From Gammaproteobacteria bacterium (GTDB lineage: Bacteria > Pseudomonadota > Gammaproteobacteria > Eutrophobiales > Eutrophobiaceae): 64,000 bases of DNA. Under the pieces are notes generated by a model. The model did no database searches and had not been told where the DNA came from. It saw only the letters and a program-made list of their open reading frames with translations. Both the position numbers and the translations under genes were made by a program. The DNA is taken from positions 3,936,001-4,000,000 of the forward strand of contig OZ220696.1 of assembly GCA_965116495.1 (NCBI GenBank), read 5' to 3'. Shown piece by piece: positions 1 to 23,501 of this stretch. The first letter of the stretch is position 1; every line of letters starts with the position of its first letter.

Positions 1-580
1 TGGGCCGGCTGTTCCCGGCGAGAATGATAGGCGGATGAGGACGTTGCACCGGCTTCGGGTAGAATCGGCAAGGGGGCAAATCATAAAAATCATCGTGGTA
101 CTCGGAAACGCGGTCACACCACAGGCGTTTTATCACTTCTATATAAGAGCGGGTGCGCGCCCCGCGTTGTTCAAACGGCGCGCCCACAACCTTGAATTCC
201 TCGGCCATCCAGCCAAGGCCGACCCCGAATAACAGGCGCCCGTTGGAAAGCCAGTCAACGTTTCCGGCTTCTTTTGCGGTGTAAACAGGATTGCGTTGCG
301 GCAGGACGCAAATTGCGCTGCCCAGGCGTATCCTGCCGGTGACCGCGGCGAGATAGGCCAGTGACGTGAATATATCCAATTCGACGTTGTCTTCCACGTT
401 CTCCAACGGCATCTGGCCGTCTTCAGACACCGGGTAGTTTGCCTCGTAGTTATCCGTTATGACGACATGTTCGCCAATCCAGAGGGAATCAAAGCCCAGG
501 GCTTCGGCGGTTATGCCGAACGTGCGAATTAATTCCGGGGTGGAGTAGAGATTGAGAGGAACCAGTACACCGAGTTTCAT
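1..580 (-). CDS. LLM-class (luciferase-like, probable F420-dependent, Rv2161c-type) oxidoreductase, 3' end outside window
   Basis: Not in the ORF track. Manual translation from ATG at 580 gives MKLGVLVPLNLYSTPEL...LWIGEHVV...VLPQRNPVYTAKEAGNVDWLSNGRL...FYPKPVQRPHPPI, a close paralog of 4482..5363. Confidence 0.9.
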   Translation of the reverse strand, partial: MKLGVLVPLNLYSTPELIRTFGITAEALGFDSLWIGEHVVITDNYEANYPVSEDGQMPLENVEDNVELDIFTSLAYLAAVTGRIRLGSAICVLPQRNPVYTAKEAGNVDWLSNGRLLFGVGLGWMAEEFKVVGAPFEQRGARTRSYIEVIKRLWCDRVSEYHDDFYDLPPCRFYPKPVQRPHPPIILAGNSRP

Positions 581-610
581 ACTATGCTTCCTGATTAAAT
601 AACAAGAGAT

Positions 611-714
611 TAGGCCATTCTTGTCCGGCAACCCGGCAACAATGGTTTATAACTTTATGATATATTGGGTTTTGGCCGCATCAAGGTTTTTATTTTAGGC
701 CGACGCACTATTAT
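611..714. promoter_or_regulatory. Divergent LLM/tetR control region with two operator-like sites
   Basis: TAGGCCA at 611, TAGGCCG at 696 followed by TATTAT at 709, and IHF-like TAACTTTATGATA at 650-662. Confidence 0.55.
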
Positions 715-769
715 TCGCAAGCATTTTTCGAGTATCATGCAACATCATGGGCGGATAAATACCGATATA

Positions 770-1405
770 ATGAACGCAGAACAACCGGAAAAACCGGACA
801 AGCCACAATCGAACAATAAAGTCACCGGGACCAAGGGGCAGAAGCGCCGCCAGCAGATCATTGACGCGGCGAAGCAGGCCCTGATAGAGGGTGGCGCGAA
901 CAGCCTGGTCCTGCGCGATGTCGCGGACCAGATTGGTATCACCCACGGCAATCTTCAATATTACTTCCCCACGAAAAACGATCTGCTGATAGCGATATTC
1001 GACCAGGCGGTAGAGAAATACACGGAGAGCATGAAGGTGGCAGTCTCCGAAACGTCCACCAGCAAGGGCAGGCTGGATGCCATCATCGATGCCGGTATCG
1101 CCGAGTTGAAAGCGCCCGAAACCGCGTTATGGCGCATGATGATGTCCCTAGCGGACCACAACACGGACATGGCCTCGATTTTGAAGAAGGAAAACGACCT
1201 GTATGAACAGGTCGTGGCGGAGGAATTGGAGTTAATTTCTCCAGGGCTGTCTATTCAACGCAGGCGCCATATCGCCCGGATCATCCACGCCATACTCGAC
1301 GGACTCGGCATCCAGTTCTCCTATGAAGATGCGGAAGGCCCGGAGATGCGGGCGCTGGCCAGCGAGATTAAGATAGCGTTATTCGCCATGCTGCAGGCGA
1401 GTTAG
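770..1405 (+). CDS. TetR/AcrR family transcriptional regulator
   Basis: N-terminal HTH (IIDAAKQALIEGG..LRDVADQIGITHGNLQYYFPTKNDL). Start moved from TTG 665 to in-frame ATG 770. Confidence 0.92.
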   Translation: MNAEQPEKPDKPQSNNKVTGTKGQKRRQQIIDAAKQALIEGGANSLVLRDVADQIGITHGNLQYYFPTKNDLLIAIFDQAVEKYTESMKVAVSETSTSKGRLDAIIDAGIAELKAPETALWRMMMSLADHNTDMASILKKENDLYEQVVAEELELISPGLSIQRRRHIARIIHAILDGLGIQFSYEDAEGPEMRALASEIKIALFAMLQAS

Positions 1406-2193
1406 CGTTTGCTAATCATAAACGAACGTAATTCTTCGGTAGTGTATGTCTTCTCTACTTTGCCGTAATTCAGCTCAGCATTGGCGCGGCCGTATTCGAA
1501 AGAAATCAACTCTTTGACGGGTAACATGGAATCGGAATGCGCGCCGAACTGCAGGTTCCCCGAACCGGTATAGACTTCTGCCTTCCCGTCCGAACCAATG
1601 ATCGGGTTGACCTGGTAGTTCAGTGTAACCATCTGTGCCAGAATTGGTAATTGCCCTCCTTCTGCGTCCGGTATAACGCGCAGACAGATAAGGGGTACCG
1701 CATCTCCGTCACTTGCCAGTTCATTCCTTGCCGGTTTCATCATGGCCCGGATGGCCCGGTCGTCAGGTTTGACATCCATCACTGCCTCTACATGACCGTC
1801 GCTGTGCTTGATAACGTCGATCCGGTGGGCGCGTTTTTTGCCAAATCCGTACAGTTCACGATCCACAATCTGTGAGGTTTCACTGGTACAGTACACCCCC
1901 GCCAGGTAGCCGTGGACTTTGCCTTGCCATTCACACAGGATACCGGTAAACACCTCGTTGTAGGCCCCTACAGTGCTCCAATGATTTCTCTCGATCACCA
2001 TGAATGCAGTGGCAGGTTCATGGAGTGAGAGAACGGGAGGCAGGATGTCAAGTATGGCGTCATCCTCAGTCTTCCAGGTGACGGTAACGGCTTCAAAATC
2101 GCGGAAATAGTAGGGACCTCTATGCACAGAAGGGCTGTGTAGAGGTGCGAATGCGCCCCATTTGTCAAAAGTGAGTCGTCCGGGTTTTGGCAT
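1402..2193 (-). CDS. Acetoacetate decarboxylase-like (ADC superfamily) protein 1
   Basis: GPYYFRD and DRELYGFGKK (Schiff-base Lys motif), LRVIPD..LAQ; paralog of 5494 and 7756. Confidence 0.85.
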   Translation of the reverse strand: MPKPGRLTFDKWGAFAPLHSPSVHRGPYYFRDFEAVTVTWKTEDDAILDILPPVLSLHEPATAFMVIERNHWSTVGAYNEVFTGILCEWQGKVHGYLAGVYCTSETSQIVDRELYGFGKKRAHRIDVIKHSDGHVEAVMDVKPDDRAIRAMMKPARNELASDGDAVPLICLRVIPDAEGGQLPILAQMVTLNYQVNPIIGSDGKAEVYTGSGNLQFGAHSDSMLPVKELISFEYGRANAELNYGKVEKTYTTEELRSFMISKR

Positions 2194-2218
2194 TGTATTA
2201 TTCTCGCAGGGTTGTCAG

Positions 2219-4465
2219 CTAAATTTGTGTTATCCGAACCGGAATAGCGTTCAGTACTGCTGTCCCGGATAAAGTATCCAGGTTCATGTCGTCTACCAGT
2301 ACATTCATGTTTGACCCCGGTTTCTGCCGGGCGATGTTCAAGCGCATACCTTCCCTGTTGTGTCCCCATCCATGAGGCATACTCACGACTCCCGGCATGA
2401 TATCTTCGGTAATCTCAACAGGTATTTCGATCTCCCCGGTATTTGTGCTCAATCTGGCCGGCCTGCCGTCATCCAGGGACAGCCGCTGCGCATCTTCCGG
2501 ATGAACCTGCAGGGTGCAACGGGATTGACCTTTCGCCAGAATATCAACGTTGTGACCCCATGAGTTGATACTGCGCAAATGCCGGCGTCCGATTAGTAAT
2601 AGTTCTTCCCCGGAAGGGTGTTGCAGCGGCGCCTGAAGCAATGTGCGGGCTTCTTCCATGAAGGCTGCGGGAGCCATCTCAATTTTTCCGTTGGGTGTGC
2701 GCAATACTTCGGGTAAGCGCGGTTGTAAAGCGCCAAAATCAACCCCGTCAGGTTTGGAAATTATTTTTTCCAGTGTTATACCGTCCGGGTTCGCGCCAAA
2801 TCCATCGCCATAGGGGCCGACTCTGAACCCGGCGTCCAATACCCGTTCCACACCGCGCTTGCCTGAGAGCCGGCTCATTGCAGAGGGAATATCAATACCG
2901 TGAGCTATGGAATACTCATCAGCCGCCGCTTCGGCGATAATTTCACTGATCATCCGGTCCTCCATTTCCTGTAAACCTTGTTCGTCCTGAACCCCAAGCC
3001 CGGCTGCTATAGCGCTGATTTGCAGTAATACATCCCAATCCGATACCCACTCCGCGGGTGACGTGAACAGGGCAGGGGAGAACCGGACAACATTCCGCAC
3101 TGCATACATGGCCGAAAAACTCCCGTAGTAGCATGTTTCGAAAGTAGGGGTTCCCGGCAGGATTACATCGGCATGGCGCGAGGTTTCGTTGATATAAATA
3201 TCCAGCGACAGGAAAAAATCCAGTCGGGACAGCGCCTTGTCCAGGCGTTCCGGGTTCGGGGCACTGGATACCGGATTTCCGCACATGGTAACCAGGGCGC
3301 GGATTTGTCCATCTCCAGGTGTTTCAATTTCTTCAGCCAGACAGGCAACCGGCAATTCACCACAGGTCGGCGGCATGTTGCGAACACGGCTACGGAACGT
3401 GGATTTGGGTAGCGGTTCACCTGTACCCGGTTTACCCTTTGTGTTGGCAGCAAACGATGGCGCCTTGGCAAACATCATACCGCCGGGTTTATCAAGATTG
3501 CCGGTCACGATGTTAATGACTTCAATTAACCAACTGGTAACCGTACCGTACTTCTGCGTGGTGGAGCCGACCCGGCCGTAAACGCCTGCTCTTTCCCTTG
3601 TCGCCAGTTCATGGGCGATTGTTTCAATGGATAAGGCATCTATCCCGCAGTTGGCCGACATTTGTTCCAGGGAAACCAGTTTTGCCAACGCTTCTATCGT
3701 ATCCAGGCCTGATATGAACGGGGCGATAGCGGCTGTTTTCGACAACCGGTCACGAAATATGACATGCAGCACGGCCAACAGGAAATACTGGTCCTGTCCC
3801 GGGCGAATGAACAAATGCCGGTCGGCAATTTTTGCCGTCTCAGTACGGCGAGGGTCCACAACAACCAACTTGCCGTTGCGCTTTTTCAAATCCCGCGCAC
3901 GTTTCCTGAAATTGGTTGCCAGCCATAAACTCCCGTTGGAAATTTCCGGGTTTGCACCGATGATGAGCAGGTAGTCAGTGCGGTCTATATCGGGTACGGG
4001 GTTGGTGGACTCATCACCATACATTTCGGTGCAAGTGAGTATCTTCGGGAGTGCATCGACAGAGTTGGCCGTATACAGATGAGGCGTAGCAAGGGCTTCG
4101 TACAGAAACAGAAAGCCGGTATTAAAAGCTGCGCTGCGTAAAGTGGCATTACCCACGTACAGGGCAACAGACTCCTTACCATATCGTTGTGTTACGTCTG
4201 ACAGTTTTTCATCGATAACCGCAAAGGCTTCATCCCAGCCGGCAGGCACAAGCTTGCCGTTTTTTCGCACCATTGGTGTCCTTAGCCGGTCCGGGTCATC
4301 TCCCAGTTCCATTAGTGCCACACCTTTAGGACAGACATGTCCCAGGGTCATCAGATCATTGTTATTGCCACGAATGCTGACTACCTTATTTTCTTCGAGC
4401 GTAAGTTCCAGCCCACAGATGGCTTCACAATTCGGACAGATGTAGTAGCTCTCCCGGCGGGACAT
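2219..4465 (-). CDS. Molybdopterin-dependent oxidoreductase (DMSO reductase superfamily, cytoplasmic, N-terminal 4Fe-4S)
   Basis: CPNCEAICG..CPKG, DPDRLRTPM, VVVDPRRTETA, HADVILPG, C-terminal PGVVSMPHGWG. No Tat signal. Confidence 0.9.
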   Translation of the reverse strand: MSRRESYYICPNCEAICGLELTLEENKVVSIRGNNNDLMTLGHVCPKGVALMELGDDPDRLRTPMVRKNGKLVPAGWDEAFAVIDEKLSDVTQRYGKESVALYVGNATLRSAAFNTGFLFLYEALATPHLYTANSVDALPKILTCTEMYGDESTNPVPDIDRTDYLLIIGANPEISNGSLWLATNFRKRARDLKKRNGKLVVVDPRRTETAKIADRHLFIRPGQDQYFLLAVLHVIFRDRLSKTAAIAPFISGLDTIEALAKLVSLEQMSANCGIDALSIETIAHELATRERAGVYGRVGSTTQKYGTVTSWLIEVINIVTGNLDKPGGMMFAKAPSFAANTKGKPGTGEPLPKSTFRSRVRNMPPTCGELPVACLAEEIETPGDGQIRALVTMCGNPVSSAPNPERLDKALSRLDFFLSLDIYINETSRHADVILPGTPTFETCYYGSFSAMYAVRNVVRFSPALFTSPAEWVSDWDVLLQISAIAAGLGVQDEQGLQEMEDRMISEIIAEAAADEYSIAHGIDIPSAMSRLSGKRGVERVLDAGFRVGPYGDGFGANPDGITLEKIISKPDGVDFGALQPRLPEVLRTPNGKIEMAPAAFMEEARTLLQAPLQHPSGEELLLIGRRHLRSINSWGHNVDILAKGQSRCTLQVHPEDAQRLSLDDGRPARLSTNTGEIEIPVEITEDIMPGVVSMPHGWGHNREGMRLNIARQKPGSNMNVLVDDMNLDTLSGTAVLNAIPVRITQI

Positions 4466-4481
4466 GGACAGAAATCATCAG

Positions 4482-5363
4482 TTAAATTGATGAAACGAAA
4501 TCCAGGTATTGTTCGGCTAACCTGTTTAACAGACTTTCGACCTCGGCTGCAGATGTTGCAAAGTGCAAAAGGACGAGTTCGTCGACACCCAGTTCCCTGT
4601 ATTCCTCAATCATTTCGTGGTCATAGTCATGTCCATAGGGACAGGCATAAACCTTAATCTCTTCTCTTGGCCGGTTCGCCTCAACAAGCGCGGCTTCCAG
4701 GTCCGCGATTTGCGGAGCCAGTTGTTCGGGATTGGCGCCGATGGCAAACCAGCCCTGGCACTGGTCTGCAACGCGCCTGAAACTGGGTTTACTGTTACCG
4801 GCAAAAATAATGGGCGGGTGGGGCGTTTGAACGGGCTTCGGATAGAAGCTGCAGGGGCGTAAGTCATAAAATTCATCATGGTATTCAGAGACAGGGTCGC
4901 ACCACAGGCGTTTTATCACCTCGATATACGAACGGGATCGCGCCCCGCGCTGTTCATAGGTGGCGCCGACAGCTTCAAACTCCTCTCTCTGCCACCCCAG
5001 CCCGACGCCGAGTTCCAGGCGCCCGTTTGAAAGCCAATCCACGTTTGCCGCTTCTTTTGCCGTGTAAACCGGATTGCGTTGCGGCAGCACGATGACAGCG
5101 GTGCCCAGCCGTATTCTGTCAGTGATCGAGGCAAGGTAAGCCAGGGAAGTGAATGCATCGAGTTCAGCATTATCGGCAGCTTCTTCGTACTCCATCCTGC
5201 CATCTTCGTATACGGGAAAGTTCGGATCGTAATCATCCACCATCACAACATGCTCACCGACCCACAGCGAGTTAAAACCCAGTTTCTCCGCAGTCGTTCC
5301 AAGCGCGCGCAGAAACTCCGGGGTTGCGGTAAGGTTAAGCGGGACCAGTACGCCTAATTTCAT
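4482..5363 (-). CDS. LLM-class probable F420-dependent oxidoreductase (Rv2161c-type)
   Basis: LWVGEHVV, RIRLGTAVIVLPQRNP, LSNGRLELGVGLGW, PKPVQTPHPPI. Confidence 0.9.
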   Translation of the reverse strand: MKLGVLVPLNLTATPEFLRALGTTAEKLGFNSLWVGEHVVMVDDYDPNFPVYEDGRMEYEEAADNAELDAFTSLAYLASITDRIRLGTAVIVLPQRNPVYTAKEAANVDWLSNGRLELGVGLGWQREEFEAVGATYEQRGARSRSYIEVIKRLWCDPVSEYHDEFYDLRPCSFYPKPVQTPHPPIIFAGNSKPSFRRVADQCQGWFAIGANPEQLAPQIADLEAALVEANRPREEIKVYACPYGHDYDHEMIEEYRELGVDELVLLHFATSAAEVESLLNRLAEQYLDFVSSI

Positions 5364-5493: not shown

Positions 5494-6249
5494 TCAGTAG
5501 GTCTTGAGAATTTTCCCGTAGGGCAGGTCGGCCGTCATCCTGACATATTTGGCGTCGACAATCTGCACTACCGGCAGATTCACATCGGATATTCTGTCAA
5601 CTTCCAGTGATGCCGAACCGTTGTATAACTCGTCCTTGCCATCAGGGCCCTTGTGGGGGACGCCGGTAAACAACACCGAGTTCAACTGCGCCACGGCGGG
5701 CGTATCGCTGCCCTCGACATCGGGTATGACTTTAAGGACCGCGAGCGGCAGTGCCGCCAGTTCCGAAGCGGGCAGGTTTCTATCCGGGAAGAAAAAGGTT
5801 TTGGCGACTATGTGGCCCGGTTTGACCTCTACAACACCCTCGATCTCACCGGTCCCGTGCTTGATCAACTCGATACGGTGGGCGAGTTTTTTTCCGAAAC
5901 CCCAGACTTCCCGGCCTATGATGAGGGCATTTTCCGTCGTCACGTATACGGCGTTGGTGTAACCGTATACCTGGCCTTCATGCATACACAGGATCCCGGT
6001 GTACACCTCGCCGTAAGGGCCGCCACTGGTACTGATATTATTGACTTCCAGCACCATGAACGCGGTTGCAGGTTCAATCAGTTCAAGCTCCGGCGGCATG
6101 ATATCAAGTGCCGCATCTTCATCGGTCAGGTAGGTAATCACCAGCGCTTCGGTATCGCGGTAATACCAGGGGCCTTTCTTATAAGAAGCATTGTGTGCGG
6201 GCATTGTTGAGCCCCATTGATCGGGTGTCAGTCTTCCCATTTTTGCCAT
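5494..6249 (-). CDS. Acetoacetate decarboxylase-like protein 2
   Basis: GPWYYRD, GREVWGFGKK, LKVIPD..VAQL; RBS GGAG upstream. Confidence 0.88.
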   Translation of the reverse strand: MAKMGRLTPDQWGSTMPAHNASYKKGPWYYRDTEALVITYLTDEDAALDIMPPELELIEPATAFMVLEVNNISTSGGPYGEVYTGILCMHEGQVYGYTNAVYVTTENALIIGREVWGFGKKLAHRIELIKHGTGEIEGVVEVKPGHIVAKTFFFPDRNLPASELAALPLAVLKVIPDVEGSDTPAVAQLNSVLFTGVPHKGPDGKDELYNGSASLEVDRISDVNLPVVQIVDAKYVRMTADLPYGKILKTY

Positions 6250-6334
6250 GATGATAATCTCCGCTGTTTCTTTGTCCTTTATGGGGAAAGAATGTGAGTC
6301 TTCAAAATAAATTATATTTGATAAAGCGTTGGTG

Positions 6335-6478
6335 AGTATAGGCCAAATTATTTATTTTTGCAAATCGTCCAGCAAATGAGTTAACCTACTGAATAGTATA
6401 TTAAATCATCGATTTTATAGTGTTAATTATGTAAATTATCATAAGATACCTATATTTAAATTAGGCCAATGGCATAAT
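6335..6478. promoter_or_regulatory. Divergent promoter cassette with paired operators
   Basis: Minus-strand TTGCAA-17-TATACT (6363..6335); TAGGCCA at 6339; TAGGCCAATGGCATA at 6462; IHF-like TAACCTACTGAAT at 6382. Confidence 0.7.
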
Positions 6479-6539: not shown

Positions 6540-7697
6540 ATGCAGCATTCCAGTAAAAATTCTGATATTGCCTTAATAATTGCGGTCGCGGCCGGGACAT
6601 ATATCAGTATCACCTCGTCTAATTTCTCCCCGCTTTTAATCGGCATATTAGCGGATTCAGACATAGTAGCTGAAATTACCGGAGCCTATATTTTAGCACT
6701 TGAAATTTGTGCCATCCCTGTTGCGACGCTCGTAGTATTGCCTTTCATACAGCATGTTAATCGGCAAAGGTTAGCAATTGCAGGTGTTGTGTTCGCTACG
6801 ATTGCTCAATTGATCAGTCCGTTTTTCCTGGAGAATTATGAGCTCTTTATAACACGTTTTTGTGTTGGGCTTGGGCTGGGTTGTGTTTATGCCGCGGTCA
6901 ATTCAGTAGGCGCAACTTCCGAATATCCAGATAAGGTATTTGGCTATTCAACAGCTATTACATTTCTCCTGTACGCAATTACGCAACCACTGATGTCCAT
7001 GGTCATCGGGAGTTTTGGGTTTGGCGGTGCATGTATCTTTCTTACGGTAGCAGGATTGATTTCTCTGCTGTTTATTCGCAACTTTCCCAGTGAACCCAGC
7101 ATAGTCAAACAGCAAAAAATAGAGGTGCATTGGCGCTATTACATTGCCTTACTGATTACAATTATATTAATTAATCTTGCCGCCGGTACAACCTGGGCAT
7201 TTGTGGAAAGAGTAGGAGTTAGCAGGTTTGGATTGGATATTGAAATAATTGGTTTGATTCTCGGGATAGGAACAGCAGCCGGGGTAGTGGGGGCTTATTC
7301 AGCTTCATGGGCTTATACCCACCTGGGTCGCATAAATTCAATATTGTTTGGCTTGGTCTTGTTTGGAGCGACAAGTTACGGGATCACAAATTCAACTACA
7401 ATACCAGTCTATACCGGCAGTATAATTCTTTACTGGTTTATCTATCTGTTTCTTTATCCACTACTGTTCAGCGCTGCTGCTGAGCTGGATCGTTCCGGAC
7501 GTCTGGCTACCATTACCGGCGGTTTATTATGGCTTGCTGTTGGCATCGGACCTGCGGTTGGCGGACTGATTGCTTCTCGATATAGCTACGGCATGCTTGG
7601 ATGGTTCAGTTTTTTCTGTTGCGTTCTAGCAGTGCCTTTTTTCTATAGGGTAGGCCGGTACTTGGAGACCCGTTATGAAAGCTCTTCAAAAGCTTGA
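6540..7697 (+). CDS. MFS transporter
   Basis: About 12 hydrophobic segments and an RFCVGLGLG MFS-type motif; visibly AT-richer than its neighbours. Confidence 0.85.
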   Translation: MQHSSKNSDIALIIAVAAGTYISITSSNFSPLLIGILADSDIVAEITGAYILALEICAIPVATLVVLPFIQHVNRQRLAIAGVVFATIAQLISPFFLENYELFITRFCVGLGLGCVYAAVNSVGATSEYPDKVFGYSTAITFLLYAITQPLMSMVIGSFGFGGACIFLTVAGLISLLFIRNFPSEPSIVKQQKIEVHWRYYIALLITIILINLAAGTTWAFVERVGVSRFGLDIEIIGLILGIGTAAGVVGAYSASWAYTHLGRINSILFGLVLFGATSYGITNSTTIPVYTGSIILYWFIYLFLYPLLFSAAAELDRSGRLATITGGLLWLAVGIGPAVGGLIASRYSYGMLGWFSFFCCVLAVPFFYRVGRYLETRYESSSKA

Positions 7698-7755: not shown

Positions 7756-8589
7756 TCAGCGAATCGCCCTTATTGCCTGTATGTTCCCCGCTGAGGCCTC
7801 TACCTCTGCAGCTTCGAACTCTTCCGCCGTGTAGGTCTTCAGGATCTTCGGGTACTCCAGCACGGAGTCATAGCGCGAAAATTTGAACGATGCAACACCG
7901 CGAATGGGCAACTGAAGGTCGGACGGCCACCCGAAGGCGAGATGTCCGGGGCCGCTATAGACCATGGCACGGCCCTGCGCATCAACGTGAGGATGGACCG
8001 GATACGGCTGAGAGACGAGTTGCGCCAAGGCAGGACGGTCTCCACCCTCAGAATCAGGGAATGTCTTGAGAAATATCATCGGAATAGACTGGTGCGCGCC
8101 CAGTGCTTCGGCCGACTCGTGCGTAGCCGGCCGCATTACGGCACATGCTGCCCGGTCACCGTTCTTGATCTCCATGATCGCCTGGATGTCTCCATCCTCG
8201 TGCTGAGTAACCTCGATGCGCTCAGCGGTCTTCTTGCCACATCCAACGATTTCCCGGGCAACCACCCGGGAAGCGACGCCGCTCGTGTACACGGCAGGGA
8301 TGTAACAGCAGTCTTCTCCCTGCCACTTGCACATGATGCCCATGTAGGCCTCGCTATAGGGCCCCAGCGTCGTCCAATGGTTGTCCGCAATTGAGACGAA
8401 TGCCGTCGCCGGCTCGACAAGCTCGAGATCGGGAGGCATGAGGCTGCGCGCCGCATCCTCGTCTGTTTCAAATTCAATGATGATCCCTTCGGTGTTGATA
8501 TAATACCAGGGACCCTTGGATGCACAGGAGTCATGAACCGGCGAGAATGGACCCCACTTGTCCAGCGTAAGCGTACCCGTTTTACCCAT
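7756..8589 (-). CDS. Acetoacetate decarboxylase-like protein 3
   Basis: Start moved to ATG 8589 (RBS GGGGAG; MGKTGTLTLDKWG aligns with paralogs); AREIVGCGKK motif. Confidence 0.85.
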   Translation of the reverse strand: MGKTGTLTLDKWGPFSPVHDSCASKGPWYYINTEGIIIEFETDEDAARSLMPPDLELVEPATAFVSIADNHWTTLGPYSEAYMGIMCKWQGEDCCYIPAVYTSGVASRVVAREIVGCGKKTAERIEVTQHEDGDIQAIMEIKNGDRAACAVMRPATHESAEALGAHQSIPMIFLKTFPDSEGGDRPALAQLVSQPYPVHPHVDAQGRAMVYSGPGHLAFGWPSDLQLPIRGVASFKFSRYDSVLEYPKILKTYTAEEFEAAEVEASAGNIQAIRAIR

Positions 8590-8625: not shown

Positions 8626-8654
8626 AATATAGGCCATTGGCCGGGTCTTATCAA
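8626..8654 (-). promoter_or_regulatory. sigma70 promoter overlapped by operator
   Basis: Minus-strand TTGATA-17-TATATT; TAGGCCATTGGCCGG at 8630. Confidence 0.65.
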
Positions 8655-10904: not shown

Positions 10905-11249
10905 TTAACGCCATTCCACCGGTTTATCCGATACCAGCATGGTGATGTCTTCAAAGTCATCGCTCATTTCGAAATCGATAGTAGTCCCTTCTTCAACATA
11001 CAGGATGTCGCCTACGCCTATCGAAAAGTTCTCACCTCCATGGACATTGACTTTGGCGGAACCCTTGAGTACGAAGGCAAATTCGTCAAAGGGGTAGGTA
11101 AAGGTGTGTTTTCCGGCTTCCTTGAAAGCAACGACTGCCCGTGTCTTGTCGGCTGACCGGTAGAAAACATGTTCCCCGCCGCCGAATTCCGGTGTCAGTT
11201 CCCAATCAACGTCTTTCATGTTAAAGCGTAAGGCTTTTGGTGTGTTCAT
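10905..11249 (-). CDS. Cupin (EutQ/DUF861-like)
   Basis: YPFDEFAFVLKG..GDILYVEEG. Confidence 0.8.
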   Translation of the reverse strand: MNTPKALRFNMKDVDWELTPEFGGGEHVFYRSADKTRAVVAFKEAGKHTFTYPFDEFAFVLKGSAKVNVHGGENFSIGVGDILYVEEGTTIDFEMSDDFEDITMLVSDKPVEWR

Positions 11250-15782: not shown

Positions 15783-15926
15783 AGTATAGGCCAGAGTATA
15801 GTTTATTTCAACAATTGTTTAAAATTGATAAGTCATTAATATACAATGTATTAAACAATTTTAAATTAGAATTATCAAAAAACAGGATTTAACGATGGGA
15901 TTAATAATAGGCCAGCGGCTTATAGT
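15783..15926. promoter_or_regulatory. Divergent promoter cassette with paired operators
   Basis: Minus-strand TTGAAA-17-TATACT (15811..15783); TAGGCCA at 15787; TAGGCCAGCGGCTTA at 15908 running into TATAGT; IHF-like TAAGTCATTAATA at 15829. Confidence 0.7.
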
Positions 15927-16020: not shown

Positions 16021-18114
16021 ATGAAAACCATTCTCGTAACAATCATCGCATTCATGGTTACATTTCAAAAACCGGCTTTTGCTCTCGATACTGATCTGCC
16101 CGGTTATACCTATGAGCAGGCGCAACTGGGCAGGGCAGTCTATAAACAATCCTGTGAGTTGTGTCACGGGGCAAATTTAAATGATGGTTCGTCACCACCG
16201 ATTACCGGTGACCTTTTCTATAGTATATGGGGTGGACGTTCTGCAGGAGAGTTACTGCAGTATATTGAAACAGAGATGCCGACCGGTTCACCGGGAACAC
16301 TTGACAGTAAACAATACCGGCAAGTTCTGGCTTATATGTTCCAGGTGAGCGGTTTTCCTGCGAGGGATGGTGAACTGTCACAAAATCCGGATGAGTATGA
16401 TACTGCGCGTTTACCGATACCGTCCGGAGGCCGGATTTCTGCAGATATTGTCGCCATACCACCGCCACCCGATCCACGGGCGAACCCGCTTGATAAAATC
16501 ACAAGGGTAAGCAGTCAAACATTGGCGCAAGCGCCCGCCGGGGACTGGTTAATGTGGCGTCGAACATACGACGCAAAGGGCTTCAGTCCATTAAAAAATA
16601 TCAGCGCGAAAAATGTGACGGACCTGAAGGTGGCATGGGCATGGACAATGCCCGATGGCAGGAACATTTCAACACCATTAGTCCATGATGGGGTTATGTT
16701 CATGTATGGTGCGGGCAGCCTCGTGTATGCGTTTGATGCTGTTACGGGGGATATTCTTTGGCGTTATGAGAGGGAGAAGAAGTGGCACTCTCCACGTTCT
16801 TTTGGTCCGCGCGCCATATCAATTTATAACGACAAAATCATTCTGACCACCGATGACGGAAATATCGTCGCACTCAACGTAAAGACCGGCAAAGTCGAAT
16901 GGGATAAATCCGTATTAAGTGCTACCACCCTTTGGTTTTCCGCGGGTACCCTGGTTGCCGATGAAAAAATTCTCATCGGCACGGCTACTGCCAGCGCACC
17001 CGGCATGAACTTTATCGCAGCGTTTGATGTACATACCGGTGATGAATTATGGCGCTTCCATACCATCCCACAGGATGGACAGCAGGGTAGTGATAGCTGG
17101 AATGGGGTTGCAACAGGGCAACGCCAGGGTGCGGGCGTCTGGGTACCAGGTAGCTATGATCCGGAATCAAATCTGGTTTTCTTTGGTACCGGTAATACTT
17201 ACAGGCCACAACTTTTGAGAATATTGGCCGAAGGCGCCGCAAGCAATGATGGGCTTTACACCAATTCCACACTCGCGCTTGATATAGATAGCGGAAAACT
17301 GAAATGGCATTTCCAACATCTACCGAATGATCAATGGAATTATGATTGGGCCTTTGAACGAACAGTTGTGGTCTTACCTGTCAACGGAGTTCACAAAAAA
17401 GTGGTCATTACAGGCGGTAAGCAAGCCATTTTTGAAGCCTTGCAGGTTAGTAATGGTGAGTATCATTTCTCGATAGATACAGGTTTGCAAACTGTGATCA
17501 AGGCAATAGAGCCACTGACGGGCACTAAAAGAATAGCTGCGAATGTATTACCTGAAAAAAATCAAACGCGTTTTGTCTGCCCCGATTCCCTGGGGGCCAG
17601 GAACTGGCAGCCAACATCATTCAACAGTGAAACAAATACACTCTTCACGCCATATAGAGAGTCGTGCATGAAAATACGATCGCCATTATTACCCGGTGAT
17701 ACTCCGCACGGACTTTTTGGCCAGAAACCTTATCCGGCACCGGGTAGCGACGGTAACTTTGCCGGCCTGCGGGCTATAAACCTGGAAAGCCAGGAAATAT
17801 TGTGGTCAACCCGTAAACGGGCAGAGCTGAGTACCGGCGTATTGGCGACCGCGGGAGGGTTGATATTCTCGGGTTCGCGGGACCGGGTATTTTCTGCCTA
17901 TGATCAATCTGGTGGTACAGAATTATGGCAAGTTCGTCTCAATGGAGTTCCCAGCGGTGGCCCCATCAGTTTTATGGTAGAAGGTAAACAGTACATCGCG
18001 GTTACTACCGGTGACTCTGAAGGTTTCGGTGAATACAATTTGGGTGAAGGAGATCAAAATCCAAAAAAGAGCAGTGCAACTATTTGGGTATTTGAGTTAC
18101 GTGATTCCAGTTAG
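16021..18114 (+). CDS. Periplasmic PQQ-type beta-propeller dehydrogenase with N-terminal c-type cytochrome
   Basis: Sec signal, CELCH heme motif, WLMWRRTY..FSPL, STPLVHDG, YDPESNLVFFGTGN, GGPISFMVEGKQYIAV. Confidence 0.88.
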   Translation: MKTILVTIIAFMVTFQKPAFALDTDLPGYTYEQAQLGRAVYKQSCELCHGANLNDGSSPPITGDLFYSIWGGRSAGELLQYIETEMPTGSPGTLDSKQYRQVLAYMFQVSGFPARDGELSQNPDEYDTARLPIPSGGRISADIVAIPPPPDPRANPLDKITRVSSQTLAQAPAGDWLMWRRTYDAKGFSPLKNISAKNVTDLKVAWAWTMPDGRNISTPLVHDGVMFMYGAGSLVYAFDAVTGDILWRYEREKKWHSPRSFGPRAISIYNDKIILTTDDGNIVALNVKTGKVEWDKSVLSATTLWFSAGTLVADEKILIGTATASAPGMNFIAAFDVHTGDELWRFHTIPQDGQQGSDSWNGVATGQRQGAGVWVPGSYDPESNLVFFGTGNTYRPQLLRILAEGAASNDGLYTNSTLALDIDSGKLKWHFQHLPNDQWNYDWAFERTVVVLPVNGVHKKVVITGGKQAIFEALQVSNGEYHFSIDTGLQTVIKAIEPLTGTKRIAANVLPEKNQTRFVCPDSLGARNWQPTSFNSETNTLFTPYRESCMKIRSPLLPGDTPHGLFGQKPYPAPGSDGNFAGLRAINLESQEILWSTRKRAELSTGVLATAGGLIFSGSRDRVFSAYDQSGGTELWQVRLNGVPSGGPISFMVEGKQYIAVTTGDSEGFGEYNLGEGDQNPKKSSATIWVFELRDSS

Positions 18115-18141
18115 GAAATGATCTGTACAACTGTGTTAGTA

Positions 18142-18287
18142 AATATTAGGCCAACACATAGTATTTTACGAAAAAATTTACTAATTATATAACTATATGA
18201 TAAACATATAATAAATAAAAATATTAATAAGATTATATAACTCATAATATTAATATTTTGACTAATAATAGGCCATTATATTATAAT
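18142..18287. promoter_or_regulatory. Promoter cassette with paired operators
   Basis: TAGGCCA at 18147 and 18269; plus-strand TTGACT-18-TATAAT (18258..18287); IHF-like TAACTATATGATA at 18190. Confidence 0.7.
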
Positions 18288-18314
18288 AAGAACTTGTTGA
18301 ACAGGAGAAAGCCA

Positions 18315-19373
18315 ATGTCAGACACACAAAATGAACACCCACTAAGCCTGGACCACGCCGCAATCTGGGTCGAAGACATGGAAAAAACAGTCGGCTTCCT
18401 CACTGACGTGGTAGGCTGGCGGCGCCATCCCATGGAGATTATGGTGAGTGACGAGGACGAAACCACCGGCGGCATGGAGGCCGTGTTCGTCGACGCCAAC
18501 GGCATATGGCTGGAAATGATATTACCCACGTCACCCGGTCCGGGCATGGACATCCTCAAGGAAAAAGGCGACGGCGCCATCATTGAGATCAACTTCGAGC
18601 CCGGCAATTACGATGCAGTGCTGGATGACATGAAGGCCAGGGGCATCCCGATGTTCAACATGGACGGTTCTCCCCTGGGTGAAGACGGCGGAGTCATCAA
18701 GGAAGGCGTGGTCGATGAAGGCGATTTCGAGCATACCGGCCAGCGCATTGCCTATTGGTCCACCGAACTGAGTCGGGGGACGGTCGTCGAGATCTTCGAG
18801 GTGATCAAGGGTGACGAACTCAACCTGATCAGCCAGCGCGATCGGCAGTGGGAAAAGGAGAGCCTGCAACAGCAAGGGCCGCGCATGAGCCACATTTCCA
18901 TCGTCGTTGCGGACCTGGAGCGCACGGCCGGTTTCTATACCGATGTTATGGGGCTGAAACGGCACCCGATGCAACTGGGCATTGACGGCGCTTCCAACGA
19001 GGAGATCGGCGGCATGAAGGCCGCGTTCATCGATGCGGGCGATGTCTGGCTGGAACTGTTCCAGCCTGTCGGTCCCGGACCGCTCATGGACCTGCTGAAT
19101 GAAAAAGGCGACGGTTACGTAGCGGAATTGTGTACCGAAGTCGATGACCTGGCTGCGTATTACGACGAAATGAAAGCAAAAGGCGTGCAGATGGTGGGCA
19201 TCGACGGAACACCGCTGGATGACAGTGAAAAGTATTACGTGCTCGACCCCTATGGCGAGAAGATAGCCTATTTCCCCGCTGAGGTGAGCCGCGGCATGAC
19301 CATCGAAGTCATCGAGAGAGGGCCCCGGGAGACCAGCATCCTGCACCGGCGCGATGATGCGTGGAAAGACTGA
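18315..19373 (+). CDS. VOC-superfamily protein with two tandem methylmalonyl-CoA-epimerase-like modules
   Basis: Internal duplication (DHAAIWV/SHISIVV, WLEMILP/WLELFQP, EKGDG twice). Start moved to ATG 18315 (RBS AGGAG). Confidence 0.8.
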   Translation: MSDTQNEHPLSLDHAAIWVEDMEKTVGFLTDVVGWRRHPMEIMVSDEDETTGGMEAVFVDANGIWLEMILPTSPGPGMDILKEKGDGAIIEINFEPGNYDAVLDDMKARGIPMFNMDGSPLGEDGGVIKEGVVDEGDFEHTGQRIAYWSTELSRGTVVEIFEVIKGDELNLISQRDRQWEKESLQQQGPRMSHISIVVADLERTAGFYTDVMGLKRHPMQLGIDGASNEEIGGMKAAFIDAGDVWLELFQPVGPGPLMDLLNEKGDGYVAELCTEVDDLAAYYDEMKAKGVQMVGIDGTPLDDSEKYYVLDPYGEKIAYFPAEVSRGMTIEVIERGPRETSILHRRDDAWKD

Positions 19374-19451
19374 TCGGGAATAACCCGTATTCTCTCCTGC
19401 TCAATGATTCAGGCTGGGATGCATTCGTGCTAATCTACTGATTGGTGAGAT

Positions 19452-20801
19452 ATGCAGGCTAGCAGTTTGGATGTTATCCAACAGGACATTTTCACGGCCT
19501 ACCGGAAACTGACCCCCGCGTCCGGGGCATACTATCAACGCGCCCGCCAGTCATTGGCCGGTGGCACTACCGGGAATTTACGTTTTTTCCCGCCATATCC
19601 TGTTTATGAAACCGGTGGCCGGGGCGCCAGGGTCACGGATCTGGACGGTAACGAGTACATCGACTGTTTTCTCTGCAACGGTCCTCTTCTGCTGGGCCAT
19701 AATCATCCGGATGTGATCGCCACTATAGCAAGGCACAGCAAAACGGGTCCGCTGGTCGTCAACCCCCCCATCATTGCAGAGGCCGCGGAACTGGTGCAGG
19801 AAACTGTCCCCTGCGCCGAGCGGGTGCGATTCCTGAACAGCGGCACCGAGGCCGTCATTATGGCCGTGCGCTATGCGCGGGCCTTCACCGGCAACAGCAA
19901 GCTCGTTAAATTCTACGGCCACTACCACGGCCAGGCTGACCAGTTCCTGACCGGACTTGGGCCGACCGCTGAACCGTTCGGCGCCGGTGTTCCCGGTGAG
20001 GCGGCAAGCAACACCTTATTGACCGGCTATGGCGATATCGATGCATTGGCAAAACTTATGGAAAACCACGATGACATCGCAGCCGTCATCCTGGATCCGG
20101 CAATGCACGCGGGAGGGTTGTGGGGTAGCAACGGATCATTCCTGCAAGCCGTTAGATCTCTCACGTTGGCGCGTAACATCGTACTCATATTCGATGAAGT
20201 GATTACCGGTTTTCGCCTGGCGCTGGGTGGCGGTCAGGCTTACTACGGCGTGACGCCGGATTTAACCACTCTCGGCAAGGCCCTTGCTGCGGGAGAGAAG
20301 CTGGCCGCGGTTGCAGGTAAAGAGGAAATCATGCGCGTGGTTGATCCCCTGGCGGCTTCCGGTACGCCGCGTGTTTTCCAGTCCGGCACAGGTAACGACG
20401 GTAGCGCGGGCATTGCAGGCGCCATCGGCGCAATCAGGACATACCAGCAACTGAATGAGAGGGGAGAATACAGTCACCTGTTCAATATCGGTGAAGCGCT
20501 GGCCGAAGGTATCCACCAGGCATTTTCGTCCCGGGAGATACCTTGTCATGTGAACCGGTTGGGGCCCATGCTGCAGCTTTTCCTCTCGGCAGAAGAACCC
20601 GGTTTCGAGCGCTTTTCCTTACTGGACATGAAGGTGTTATCACTATTCTTTCTGGCGCTCATTAACGAAGGGGTGATCCTGACATTGCCCACCTCGCACC
20701 ACATTTACCTGTCTTTTATGCATAGCAGCGAGGACATCGACGTCATCATTGACAGGACGAACCTGGTTCTGGATAAATATGATTTCAGATCACTGTTATA
20801 G
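19452..20801 (+). CDS. Class III PLP aminotransferase, GSA-aminomutase-like subgroup
   Basis: NSGTEA, HYHG, IFDEVITGFR, PDLTTLGK. Confidence 0.88.
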   Translation: MQASSLDVIQQDIFTAYRKLTPASGAYYQRARQSLAGGTTGNLRFFPPYPVYETGGRGARVTDLDGNEYIDCFLCNGPLLLGHNHPDVIATIARHSKTGPLVVNPPIIAEAAELVQETVPCAERVRFLNSGTEAVIMAVRYARAFTGNSKLVKFYGHYHGQADQFLTGLGPTAEPFGAGVPGEAASNTLLTGYGDIDALAKLMENHDDIAAVILDPAMHAGGLWGSNGSFLQAVRSLTLARNIVLIFDEVITGFRLALGGGQAYYGVTPDLTTLGKALAAGEKLAAVAGKEEIMRVVDPLAASGTPRVFQSGTGNDGSAGIAGAIGAIRTYQQLNERGEYSHLFNIGEALAEGIHQAFSSREIPCHVNRLGPMLQLFLSAEEPGFERFSLLDMKVLSLFFLALINEGVILTLPTSHHIYLSFMHSSEDIDVIIDRTNLVLDKYDFRSLL

Positions 20802-20860
20802 AATTCATCCCTGGCTGCAGGGATTAACTCGCGTTTTCAACATACAACCGGAGTACTACC

Positions 20861-22294
20861 ATGACTGACACGAGCAAAGCGGAGCTGGACAGGCTGTTTG
20901 AACAACAAAAAGCTGCCTTCCTGGCCGACAACAATCCCTCCTATGAACAACGGATGGAATGGCTGCAGGCCATGGAGAAGATGATGGTCGACTTGCGTCA
21001 GCCCATCCGTGATGCGCTGGGCCGGGATTTTGACTCTCACCCGGAGTTGATTACCGACCTGTTTGAAACCGGCGGGGTACTGGGCCGTTGTCGCAATGCC
21101 ATGGTCCATTTGCAGGAATGGATGGCCCCGGAAGAGCGGCCTTTGCTGGATATAATTCATGGGTCATCACGTTGTGAAATCGTCAAACAACCCAAAGGCG
21201 TGATGGGTAACATAGCACCCTGGAATTTTCCCATTGAGTGTTCCCTGGTCATGGTCGTTGACATGCTGGCGGCCGGCAACCGCGTTATCGTCAAGATGTC
21301 TGAACTGGCCCCGGTAACCGCAGACCTTATCCGGGAGAGTGTCGGCAAGTATTTTCCGGAAGACGTGCTGGCCGTCGTTATCGGCGATGTTGAGTTTTCC
21401 GAGTATTTTTCCGAATTACGTTGGGACCACCTGACCTATACGGGCAACACCAACGTGGGACGGCTGGTCATGCAGGCGGCGGCAAAGAACCTGACCCCGG
21501 TGACCCTGGAACTGGGCGGCAAGAATCCGACCATTTTCCTTGAAGATGGAGTCGACGAGCAACTGATCAAGGAATACCTGAGCTTCAAGTTCTGCAAGAA
21601 CGGACAAATTTGTACATCCCCCGACTATGCCCTGGTACCTGAAGGCTTGCTGGATACCTGGCTGGAACTGGCCAGGAAGGTATGGAAGGAAGCCTATCCC
21701 ACCTATATCGGCCATCCTGATGTAACCGGCATCATCAATGAACGCCATTATGACCGCATCATCAAATCCCTCGAAGAAGCGGGCAACAGCGGCGCCCAGG
21801 TGATTAACCTGAGTGATGAAGAACCGGACCGTGCACGGCGTCAAATCCCGATGTACCTGGTGGTGAACCCTGCAGATGACCAGGAAGTCATGCGCGAAGA
21901 AACCTTTGGCCCTGTTACGCCGGTGCGGACCTACAAGACCCTGGACGAGGCTTATGCCTACATTAACAGCCGCGAGCGCCCCCTGGCTTCTTACCTGGTG
22001 ACCATGGCCCGTGAGCCGGAAACGGTCGAGCAATTCAAGCGTGGTATTGTTTCAGGCGGCGCCGGCATCAATGTCTTTGGTTTCCAGGCAGCGGAGCCGA
22101 CCGCACCCTTCGGCGGGATTGGATCCAGCGGTACCGGGTGTCATGGCGGCCCCCAGGGATTTAACAATTATTCCCATTCCAAGACCGTGTATAACTGTTC
22201 CCAGGACAATCCCCTGAAGATGTCCGTCTGCGCGCCCTATGGTGAGATCACACAGGCCTTTGCGGATGGCATTTTTGCCGTGCATGAACAATAG
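20861..22294 (+). CDS. Aldehyde dehydrogenase (coniferyl-aldehyde DH / class 3-like)
   Basis: PWNFP, LELGGKNP, GQICTSPDY, EETFGP, PFGGIGSSG. Confidence 0.92.
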   Translation: MTDTSKAELDRLFEQQKAAFLADNNPSYEQRMEWLQAMEKMMVDLRQPIRDALGRDFDSHPELITDLFETGGVLGRCRNAMVHLQEWMAPEERPLLDIIHGSSRCEIVKQPKGVMGNIAPWNFPIECSLVMVVDMLAAGNRVIVKMSELAPVTADLIRESVGKYFPEDVLAVVIGDVEFSEYFSELRWDHLTYTGNTNVGRLVMQAAAKNLTPVTLELGGKNPTIFLEDGVDEQLIKEYLSFKFCKNGQICTSPDYALVPEGLLDTWLELARKVWKEAYPTYIGHPDVTGIINERHYDRIIKSLEEAGNSGAQVINLSDEEPDRARRQIPMYLVVNPADDQEVMREETFGPVTPVRTYKTLDEAYAYINSRERPLASYLVTMAREPETVEQFKRGIVSGGAGINVFGFQAAEPTAPFGGIGSSGTGCHGGPQGFNNYSHSKTVYNCSQDNPLKMSVCAPYGEITQAFADGIFAVHEQ

Positions 22295-23083
22295 ATGAAC
22301 AGTTCCGTCAACCCCCTTTCCCAGGAGTCCAAGGTTGCCCTGGTCACCGGCGCCGCCGGTGGTATCGGCAGCGCAGTGGCTATTACCCTGGCGCAACAGG
22401 GGGCATCCATTATTCTTACCGATCAGGAATCCGAGTCAGACAGGCTGACCCAAACCAGGCAATCCATAGAGAAGCTTGGGCAACCGGTTACCGCGCTGTT
22501 CGCTGACCTGGCCGCCGGAGAGCAGATTGATGTACTGGTAGAGCGTGCCTACGAGGAATTCGGATCCATCGACGTGCTGGTGAACGTTGCAGCCATCCAC
22601 CGTTATCCTGATCCCTTGCTGAAAATAAGCGAAGCGGACTGGGACCTGGTCCAGAACGTAAATTTCAAGAGCTGTTTACGCCTGTGCCAGCGCATTGTAC
22701 CCAACATGGTCAAACAAGGCTCCGGCAACGTGATAACTGTTGCTTCGGACAGCGCCTTTGATGTTATTGCCGGGGAAGGGCCTTACGGTATTTCCAAGAT
22801 CAGCCTGACCAAGCTCGCCGCCTATCTTGCCAAAGAAATTGCCGGCTCGGGTGTGCGTATAAACGCCATTGCCCCCGGTTGGGTAAGAACACCCTTGATA
22901 GAACAATACTGGTCGGATCCCGAATTCATGCGGGAAGCCAAGGCCGGCATTCCTTTGCAGCGCATTGCCGAACCCGAAGAAATTGCAAACGTGGTCCTGT
23001 TCCTGGCCTCGGACCTGGCAAGCTATGTCCATGGCCATTGCATGGTGGTAGACGGCGGGCGTATTGCCGGCGTGCCCTGTTAG
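22295..23083 (+). CDS. Short-chain dehydrogenase/reductase
   Basis: TGAAGGIG, YGISK, VDGG. Confidence 0.9.
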   Translation: MNSSVNPLSQESKVALVTGAAGGIGSAVAITLAQQGASIILTDQESESDRLTQTRQSIEKLGQPVTALFADLAAGEQIDVLVERAYEEFGSIDVLVNVAAIHRYPDPLLKISEADWDLVQNVNFKSCLRLCQRIVPNMVKQGSGNVITVASDSAFDVIAGEGPYGISKISLTKLAAYLAKEIAGSGVRINAIAPGWVRTPLIEQYWSDPEFMREAKAGIPLQRIAEPEEIANVVLFLASDLASYVHGHCMVVDGGRIAGVPC

Positions 23084-23122
23084 TCAGGGTCCATGATAGA
23101 AGTGCCTGTCTGAACATCGCTT

Positions 23123-23501
23123 ATGCAGGAATTTGTCAGCAAGGTGGCGCTGGTAACCGGAGCAGGTTCGGGTATTGGGCGCGCCACATCCTTGGGCTTT
23201 GCCAGGTGCGGCGCAAAAGTAGTGGTTGCCGATATCAACCTTTCGGCTGCGGACGATACGGTAAAGATCATCAAATCAGAAGGTGGACAGGCGACGGCGA
23301 TGCAGGTTGATGTGTCCAGTTTGCCCGCCGTCGAGGACATGGTAGCGCAGACTGTTGCCTAAAGCGCTGGAATCCGAGCCCATAGGACGTTTCGGCCAAC
23401 CGGGGGAGGTGGCCAATGCAGTCATCTGGCTCTGCTCCGAGCAGGCCTCCTTTGTCACAGGTCACGCGTTGGCCGTGGACGGTGGTTACGTAGCTCAATA
23501 A
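23123..23501 (+). pseudogene. SDR pseudogene with internal deletion
   Basis: 79-aa N-terminus (TGAGSGIG) is joined out of frame to the C-terminus [34 protein letters not shown]. The NNAG and YxxxK core is missing. Confidence 0.88.

Follow-up and report, generated by a model that had tools for sequence, protein, structure and literature searches.

Several described systems resemble, in one part or another, a 25-kb gene block in the genome of a gammaproteobacterium (G000; 4.34 Mb, 54.7% GC, 99.5% complete). The block fills the left part of a 64,000-nt stretch of DNA, here called the window (G000:C1:3936001-4000000), and it includes three genes of the acetoacetate decarboxylase (ADC) fold. The fum cluster of Sphingopyxis MTA144 likewise has a TonB receptor, a TetR regulator and a class III aminotransferase for a lipophilic amino compound. 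However, the fum cluster is not known to contain ADC, VOC or reductase genes, the block has neither a carboxylesterase nor a thiamine diphosphate enzyme, and FumI is a distant match. The sphBCD system for sphingosine metabolism in Pseudomonas reportedly combines a TonB receptor, an exported flavoprotein and a lipid-sensing regulator. It is likened here by outline, with no direct comparison, and none of the core genes of the block was matched to SphB, SphC or SphD. Pseudomonas SpdH and the CntA/GbcA/Stc2 Rieske N-dealkylases belong to the families of two block genes, yet both genes are accessory here and no Rieske reductase gene lies within the block.

A recurring core and genus-specific additions

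The block is very probably one regulated and conserved amine-catabolic module. A sequence-only reading of the window had proposed such a co-regulated system, and the genes that it named are all present. Failure of the genes to co-occur in other genomes would have refuted that reading, but they do recur together elsewhere. It had also seen no described pathway in this gene set, and we found none in a full-text literature search with limited subscription coverage, in which descriptions of single genes may be missed. The block is a system of a known kind, a real and conserved catabolic regulon, which is apparently undescribed and whose chemistry is likely new.

Gene content outside the genus was scored by tblastn, with identity cut-offs chosen gene by gene, in 38 loci of at least 7 kb (from 74 after removal of six duplicates). 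Ten of these had been fetched by their ADC gene, all of which hold the VOC gene, and 28 by the VOC gene, 18 of which hold an ADC. The counts are lower bounds and partly selected, many loci end at contig ends, and related loci are not independent. The tandem VOC gene was found in 38 loci, the TonB receptor in 30, an ADC in 28, the aldehyde dehydrogenase (ALDH) in 27 and the aminotransferase in 25. Regulators of the TetR type were present in 21 and of the AraC type in 12, and C=C reductases as a 2-alkenal reductase in 22 or a luciferase-like oxidoreductase (LLM) in 11. Less frequent were the cupin (14), the second short-chain dehydrogenase/reductase, SDR2 (12), EthD (9), the MFS transporter (8) and the CoA ligase (6). 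The SpdH-like flavoprotein (5), the Rieske oxygenase (1) and SDR1 (1) were rare, and neither the Mo enzyme nor the cytochrome c-PQQ dehydrogenase was found.

The recurring core therefore consists of the tandem VOC protein, the TonB receptor, one ADC, the aminotransferase–ALDH pair, an SDR, a regulator and a C=C reductase. The Rieske oxygenase, the Mo enzyme, the cytochrome c-PQQ dehydrogenase and two extra ADCs are genus-specific add-ons. The sequence-only reading had built the system around three ADC-fold enzymes with SpdH- and CntA-type C-N cleavage at its centre. Neither point agrees with the counts outside the genus, which show no more than a single ADC of this clade per locus and make the oxidative amine-cleaving genes additions. 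Nor are the SpdH-like and Rieske genes special to the block, as G000 holds five further SpdH-like and about 21 further Rieske matches (6 and 22 matches in total, besides nine PQQ proteins). At E 1e-15 the TetR, VOC and cupin genes are single-copy in G000.

Within the genus, ADC matches were found in 11 of 22 relatives, against none of 18 other relatives; the aminotransferase was also matched in 11 of the 22, and both genes in 10. The Mo enzyme occurs in 5/22, all of them carriers of the cluster, and adjoins ADC1 where the contig reaches. The Rieske and SpdH-like genes are both present in all nine genus loci whose stretch reaches them. In one relative (G016, locus L017) the cytochrome c-PQQ gene is shortened to 463 aa, which would fit the decay of a gene that is accessory.

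By record title the outside carriers are Halieaceae, Pseudomaricurvus alkylphenolicus and Pseudomonadales, and the names of homologs extend the host list to Steroidobacteraceae, Sphingomonadaceae and Phenylobacterium. The core is thus common to several families and two classes, with gene order reshuffled among lineages. It is nevertheless rare: in even samples, carriers made up 1 of 400 genomes of the class and 0 of 400 of the phylum, while the module was present in 6/151 genomes of the family of G425. Plasmid records gave distant homologs only. A locus titled as a Klebsiella pneumoniae metagenome-assembled genome (MAG; L045) has 64% GC and holds the module; on the ADC tree it clusters with the Pseudomonadales MAG L040, and the record is probably mislabelled or mis-binned. 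RNA contigs from four runs of one study (mostly 95–99% alike) touch 22–25 of 30 bins, where DNA carry-over is possible, and nothing is concluded from them.

The block is the most expanded copy of the module among those found, and its features are as follows (coordinates in the window unless given for G000).

G000:C1:3934001-3935644: DmdB/AlkK-like acyl-CoA ligase, 55 nt behind LLM1
1..580 (-): LLM1, luciferase-like oxidoreductase of the TIGR03619 F420 type; 5' part, the rest lying left of the window; 73% identity to LLM2
611..625: operator half-site in the divergent LLM1/TetR region
696..710: operator with two mismatches in the right arm, TetR promoter
737..1405 (+): TetR/BetI-type repressor, start 737 or 770; predicted binder of the palindrome
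1402..2193 (-): ADC1, accessory ADC-fold paralog; always adjoins the Mo enzyme
2219..4465 (-): Mo-bisPGD oxidoreductase, accessory; without visible export signal; an Asp near where FDH has its Sec/Cys ligand
4482..5363 (-): LLM2, TIGR03619 F420-type; predicted C=C (enone) reductase
5494..6249 (-): ADC2, core ADC-fold enzyme; Lys120 and Glu81 kept, Thr33/Met65 at the Arg29/Glu61 equivalents
6339..6353: operator half-site that overlaps the -10 predicted for ADC2
6462..6476: operator with one mismatch, MFS promoter; 123 nt from the half-site at 6339
6540..7697 (+): MFS transporter, accessory in the genus; inserted together with ADC3
7756..8589 (-): ADC3, accessory divergent ADC-fold paralog; likely start 8589
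8630..8644: operator with two mismatches, between ADC3 and SDR1
8751..9545 (+): SDR1
9715..10860 (-): Rieske oxygenase alpha subunit, CntA/GbcA/Stc2-like; a constant member in the genus but rare elsewhere
10905..11249 (-): EutQ-like cupin; its outside loci mostly without a Rieske gene
11411..13369 (-): SpdH-like flavoprotein with TAT motif (TAT-exported)
13549..15708 (-): TonB-dependent receptor, core; likely start 15708
15787..15801: operator half-site in the TonB receptor promoter, where it overlaps the predicted -10
15908..15922: operator with one mismatch, 121 nt from the half-site at 15787
16021..18114 (+): N-terminal cytochrome c with PQQ-type beta-propeller dehydrogenase, accessory
18147..18161: operator half-site of the third control cassette
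18269..18283: operator half-site within the spacer of the TTGACT-18-TATAAT promoter of the VOC operon
18315..19373 (+): tandem VOC protein, methylmalonyl-CoA-epimerase-like, core; conserved H14/E67/E91/E159 site
19452..20801 (+): class III aminotransferase, glutamate-1-semialdehyde (GSA)-aminomutase-like branch, core
20861..22294 (+): class 3-type ALDH, core; adjoins the aminotransferase
22295..23083 (+): SDR2
23123..23500 (+): SDR remnant with internal deletion, stop and frame change

The genes assigned to the block by the sequence-only reading stand, whereas its limits do not: the left limit lies about 2 kb outside the window, beyond the remainder of LLM1 and the ligase, and the right end is formed by SDR2 and the SDR remnant, the last segment (23123-23500) being only that remnant.

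A shared operator that follows its regulator

The operator that the sequence-only reading had noticed is real. TAGGCCA occurs nine times in the 24-kb genome bin that holds the block, compared with a mean of 1.26 per bin and no more than five in any other bin, and WTAGGCCA has 12 occurrences in the window, a count not attained in any of 100 shuffles (3.33 ± 1.84). The nine intergenic TAGGCCR sites of the block (611, 696, 6339, 6462, 8630, 15787, 15908, 18147, and 18269) are paired on the same strand with spacings of 121–123 nt (85 nt at TetR), and the pairs overlap sigma-70-like -10 elements or promoter spacers. Such pairs are also present in the loci of nine genus relatives, and the full form TAGGCC-N3-GGCCTA is seen in distant loci. 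A sigma-54 reading of the motif was ruled out by inspection, since the GG-N10-GC spacing is absent.

We surveyed the operator in 47 loci, omitting those below 4 kb and six duplicates. Its presence upstream of core genes tracks the regulator clade: it was found in 21/21 loci with a TetR of at least 41% identity, in 0/4 with a TetR of 30–40% identity and in 2/10 loci with only an AraC, as well as in 7 of 12 loci with no regulator in the available stretch. The operator is a repressor-type palindrome, predicted to be bound by the TetR of the block.

In a genome-wide matrix scan the block holds seven of the ten best operator sites. The other three lie between the divergent starts of a PQQ protein and a TonB receptor (L133), at the start of a small open reading frame (ORF; L134) and inside a gene (L135). 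None of these three is paired, so we do not claim a wider regulon. The three 170-nt control regions of the block are mutually more alike than 200 shuffles, partly through their AT content and the motif that they share. Two control cassettes (ADC2/SDR1 and receptor/VOC) are present in relatives G005 and G009, and in G000 the MFS–ADC3 pair and the cytochrome c-PQQ gene are placed between these two. As each insertion comes with additional sites, this suggests that the genes were recruited into the regulon. In G014 (locus L136, G014:C3:3150000-3169999) 35 kb separate ADC2 from a VOC–aminotransferase–ALDH operon, in which the operator pair with its 121-nt spacing is retained; an additional LLM is inserted behind the VOC gene of this operon, and EthD, flavin oxidoreductase and PQQ genes adjoin.

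Enzymes of the core and the candidate chemistry

G000 has no PF06314 matches besides the three ADC genes, all of which score below the 150-bit cut-off of the acetoacetate decarboxylase model NF002614 (69.7, 96.8, and 59.1 bits). On the tree, ADC1 and ADC3 form long-branched clades and are not recent copies of ADC2. The ADC2 model (pLDDT 90.5) has the double-barrel ADC fold, with acetoacetate decarboxylase as the nearest neighbor, followed by Sbi00515 and MppR. With the decarboxylases of Clostridium acetobutylicum (3bh2) and Legionella (3c8w) ADC2 shares the fold (TM 0.8), the equivalents of Lys115/Lys116 and Glu76, and the GRE motif. In an alignment of 42 sequences Lys120 and Glu81 are kept in 42/42, and Glu34, Asn70, Tyr102, and Glu114 are also invariant. 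In contrast, the equivalent of Arg29 is replaced in 42/42 (T33 in 41, F in ADC1) and that of Glu61 is M65. Arg29 and Glu61 form the carboxylate site of acetoacetate decarboxylase; their replacement would make the ADC2 site fit a neutral ketone better than a beta-keto acid. Here, unlike in the decarboxylases, the enzyme is also paired with a C=C reductase and an aminotransferase. The Arg or Gln for the alpha-carboxylate in MppR and Sbi00515 was not seen before Lys120 of ADC2, though no alignment aimed at it was made. MppR, Sbi00515, and Swit_4259 resemble ADC2 in fold (TM 0.69–0.73) and use lysine Schiff-base chemistry on enones or for C-N ring closure, but with 16–22% identity and on alpha-keto acids. 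MppR closes a C-N ring via its lysine (10.1101/2023.03.21.533663). The context of these enzymes is biosynthetic whereas that of ADC2 is catabolic.

The C=C reductase is interchangeable. Of the 38 outside loci 21 hold only the 2-alkenal reductase, 10 only the LLM, one holds both and six neither. The alternative enzyme is a PF16884 reductase whose best solved relatives are all double-bond, 2-alkenal or prostaglandin reductases, and no ortholog was found in G000. In Halieaceae-type operons the two use the same slot, ADC-SDR-LLM alternating with ADC-SDR-reductase-EthD, and the ADC tree (38 rows; paralogs and four rows of short or unscored loci omitted) requires at least four changes between them. 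From this repeated gene replacement the LLM is predicted to be an enone or enal reductase. Both LLM1 and LLM2 exceed the TIGR03619 cut-off of 166.9 (240.6 and 185.8 bits), and G000 has cofD and a fused cofG/H above cut-off. cofD was matched in 8/8 LLM-type genomes tested, six of them above cut-off, and in locus L098 (2520-4222) cofE and cofD directly adjoin the module. As a discriminator between LLM-type and reductase-type genomes cofD was dropped, being present in both. LxmJ is an LLM that reduces an activated C=C bond with F420H2 (PMC8498797), and by analogy the LLM of the block may do the same. The likeness extends to the LLM fold, the TIGR03619 score and F420 genes in the host; for the TIGR03619 (Rv2161c) family itself no reaction was found in the sources searched, whereas the gene replacement seen here points to enone or enal reduction.

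The aminotransferase belongs to the GSA-aminomutase branch, keeps Arg44 and Lys276 invariant and stays below the HemL cut-offs (319 < 398 and 312.5 < 527.3 bits); two further HemL-like genes are present in G000. It is adjacent to and co-oriented with the ALDH, which is class 3-like, in 24 of 26 loci, which points to conversion of CH2-NH2 to COOH by the pair. The metal site of methylmalonyl-CoA epimerase (MCE) is His/Gln/His/Glu and that of extradiol dioxygenases and HPPD is 2-His-1-Glu. The tandem VOC protein is MCE-like in sequence (141 clusters at E 1e-20; model pLDDT 94), but its conserved site of one His and three Glu is of neither type, its second site is more variable, and it scores 61.5 against the MCE cut-off of 114.95 bits. 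Foldseek with the VOC model gave only distant HPPD/HMS matches (TM about 0.6, rmsd 7–9 Å, 11–16% identity), and a closer fold relative may exist beyond the structures compared. Matches in the ESM Atlas were limited to generic clusters of VOC proteins and of class III aminotransferases. Only generic relatives were obtained for SDR2 and the PQQ protein. The CoA ligase, of the medium-chain DmdB/AlkK kind, stands directly behind LLM1 or behind the ALDH, and several loci have genes for acyl-CoA dehydrogenase, thiolase and hydratase at their flanks. The sequence-only reading had neither the interchangeable reductase nor this link to CoA ligation and beta-oxidation, both of which constrain the chemistry.

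We tentatively propose that the module degrades a lipophilic saturated N-heterocycle, or a related beta-amino alcohol or ketone, by ring-opening deamination into beta-oxidation. The observations are gene content, co-occurrence, operator and residues; the individual reactions and the class of substrate are inferred from them. Uptake of the compound would be through the TonB receptor (and MFS), and an SDR would oxidize the hydroxyl two carbons from the C-N carbon to give a cyclic beta-aminoketone. ADC2 may then hold the ketone as a Lys120 Schiff base and eliminate the beta-nitrogen (retro-aza-Michael), leaving an enone and a free amine arm, in kind the reverse of the ring closure by MppR. Reduction of the C=C bond by the LLM with F420H2 or, in other genomes, by the NADPH-dependent 2-alkenal reductase would make the step irreversible. 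The aminotransferase and the ALDH could carry CH2-NH2 over the aldehyde to the acid, and the ligase and acyl-CoA dehydrogenases would complete the route by CoA ligation and beta-oxidation. The tandem VOC protein might correct the stereocenter alpha to the carbonyl or isomerize a ketoaldehyde, while the SpdH-like, Rieske, cytochrome c-PQQ and Mo enzymes and the extra ADCs could broaden the set of usable congeners by providing entry steps (N-dealkylation, redox of N-oxides or alcohols). As a sub-case, opening of 4-oxoproline-type rings would yield an alpha-aminoketone resembling 5-aminolevulinate, the class of compound on which GSA-type aminotransferases naturally act, and the ketoaldehyde product would then suit a glyoxalase-fold enzyme or the ALDH. 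This mechanism best fits the combination of a Schiff-base enzyme that lacks a carboxylate site with an SDR, an enone reductase that is nearly obligatory, a pair of enzymes for turning amine into acid, and CoA-linked oxidation.

Several points weigh against ring-opening deamination. A beta-hydroxy leaving group, lost by dehydration or retro-aldol cleavage, would fit the ADC residues equally well, and the characterized enzymes related to those of the block are so only at the level of distant families. The CoA ligase was found in only 6/38 outside loci at the cut-off used. The two reductases are not strict alternatives, as both occur in 2/74 loci; the ADC and alkenal reductase genes are never adjacent in the 20 loci with both; and cofD also matched in two alkenal-reductase-type genomes tested, so that F420 supply does not explain the swap. 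One variant (L102 and L138, G047:C3:5000-24999), with receptor, SpdH-like, cupin, acyl-CoA dehydrogenase, SDR, ligase, VOC and EthD genes, has neither ADC nor aminotransferase in the available stretch; operator-like sites are present in L102. Finally, known beta-aminoketone alkaloids come mostly from plants, whereas several hosts belong to marine lineages.

Long-chain sphingoid-type amino alcohols would instead be oxidized by the SDR to a 3-keto-4-ene and reduced at C=C, with the ADC removing C1 or cleaving C2-C3 by retro-aldol chemistry, followed by transamination, ketol or ketoaldehyde isomerization by the VOC protein and fatty aldehyde oxidation. This accounts for every core family, suits the fatty-aldehyde type of the class 3 ALDH, the neutral ADC site and TonB uptake, and agrees with the PF12625-type AraC regulators of some loci, the type to which SphR belongs. 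However, neutral ceramidase (PF04734) is absent from G000 and the 22 genus relatives searched, the aminotransferase is far from the fumonisin aminopentol transaminase FumI (E 2e-22, compared with 1e-70 for GSA aminomutases), the ligase is of the medium-chain kind, and the module is rare whereas sphingolipids are common. We consider a sphingoid substrate unlikely.

Adda-like substrates, i.e., beta-amino acids with unsaturated, alpha-methyl-branched chains, are improbable. Here transamination would give a beta-keto acid, to be epimerized by the VOC protein, ene-reduced and decarboxylated by the ADC. The aminotransferase does belong to a branch with beta-transaminases and the MycA domain and keeps Arg44, the VOC protein is MCE-like, and Adda is degraded by an aminotransferase and beta-oxidation (PMC11446756). 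Yet the ADC has lost Arg29 and Glu61 of the beta-keto-acid decarboxylase, a ketone product would leave the tight pairing of aminotransferase and ALDH unexplained, and peptidase genes are only sporadic near the loci.

Cleavage of a polyamine, a polyamine conjugate or an N-alkyl amine by the SpdH-like and Rieske enzymes, with the fragments passing to the aminotransferase and ALDH, seems about equally improbable. With its cluster motif retained, the Rieske protein is closest to CntA and also GbcA (155.8 bits, against a GbcA cut-off of 670), and both genes are constant in the genus. Their scarcity outside it and the many paralogs elsewhere in G000 speak against this route, which would leave the ADC, the VOC protein and the C=C reductase without a role. 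The substrate-binding SpdH positions 282 and 443 are not kept in the flavoprotein alignment. Among solved structures SpdH is the single strong match of the flavoprotein (E 2e-54); of the SpdH heme ligands His54 and His562 (PMC12564564), His562 is kept, and the alignment begins after residue 54. The amine-catabolic system named by the sequence-only reading is supported, whereas its polyamine version is not favored.

For an amino-steroid or other terpenoid amine, nitrogen would be taken off the side chain, which then enters beta-oxidation. The best solved relative of the ALDH is a steroid aldehyde dehydrogenase (9nxl, E 3e-87), an MCE-like epimerase would suit a methyl-branched chain, and Steroidobacteraceae and Sphingomonadaceae are among the hosts; but no KshA-type domain was found above cut-off in G000 and no steroid-ring genes recur among annotated neighbors, so we regard this as quite improbable. 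A chance assembly of unrelated catabolic genes, for which the shuffled gene order and the several accessory genes might speak, is very improbable and largely refuted by the same core across families and two classes, by the tracking of operator and TetR clade and by inserted genes that come with a copy of the operator cassette.

Surroundings and meaning

To the right of the block lie an ECF sigma factor ORF of 116 aa (23688-24038, +), truncated-looking with region 2 only and with a paralog matching its first 82 residues, and Fic and DUF4143/AAA_14 genes (24374-26968); DUF4143 also flanks the block in G016, G009, G014, and G001. Between the Fic and DUF4143 ATPase genes is the remnant of a third LLM (25540-25640, -; 74% DNA identity over 96 nt to LLM1). 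An unrelated sugar ABC transporter and ribokinase follow (27336-32317), with TAGGCCA at 27882 and 27945 inside the permease gene. Left of the window, G000:C1:3921142-3930753 encodes TonB receptors, an acyl-CoA dehydrogenase and a molybdoenzyme of 915 aa whose membrane partner is NrfD-like; the region is syntenic in several relatives and has no operator sites. The molybdoenzyme and its partner resemble the phenylacetyl-CoA oxidoreductase PadB/PadD. Elsewhere in G000, at least two of the five further SpdH-like genes adjoin TonB receptors (near 1821191 and 2729869).

Regulated catabolic clusters are commonplace, and the interest of this block is that it joins several enzyme families without a known reaction. 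The defined operator with its TetR and a cultured carrier, Pseudomaricurvus alkylphenolicus KCTC 32386 (locus L047), provide handles for study. It is a somewhat doubtful possibility that the module represents a new mineralization of alkaloids or N-heterocycles in Proteobacteria, in which an ADC-fold C-N lyase is pulled by an F420H2-dependent TIGR03619 enone reductase; if true, TIGR03619, a new tandem-VOC family and a new ADC clade would each gain a first reaction. For an F420-type LLM family in Gammaproteobacteria, the repeated gene replacement predicts reduction of activated C=C bonds. Should the ADC be a C-N lyase, a catabolic reaction would be added to the fold, and TonB-rich oligotrophs would have a route for recycling nitrogenous natural products.

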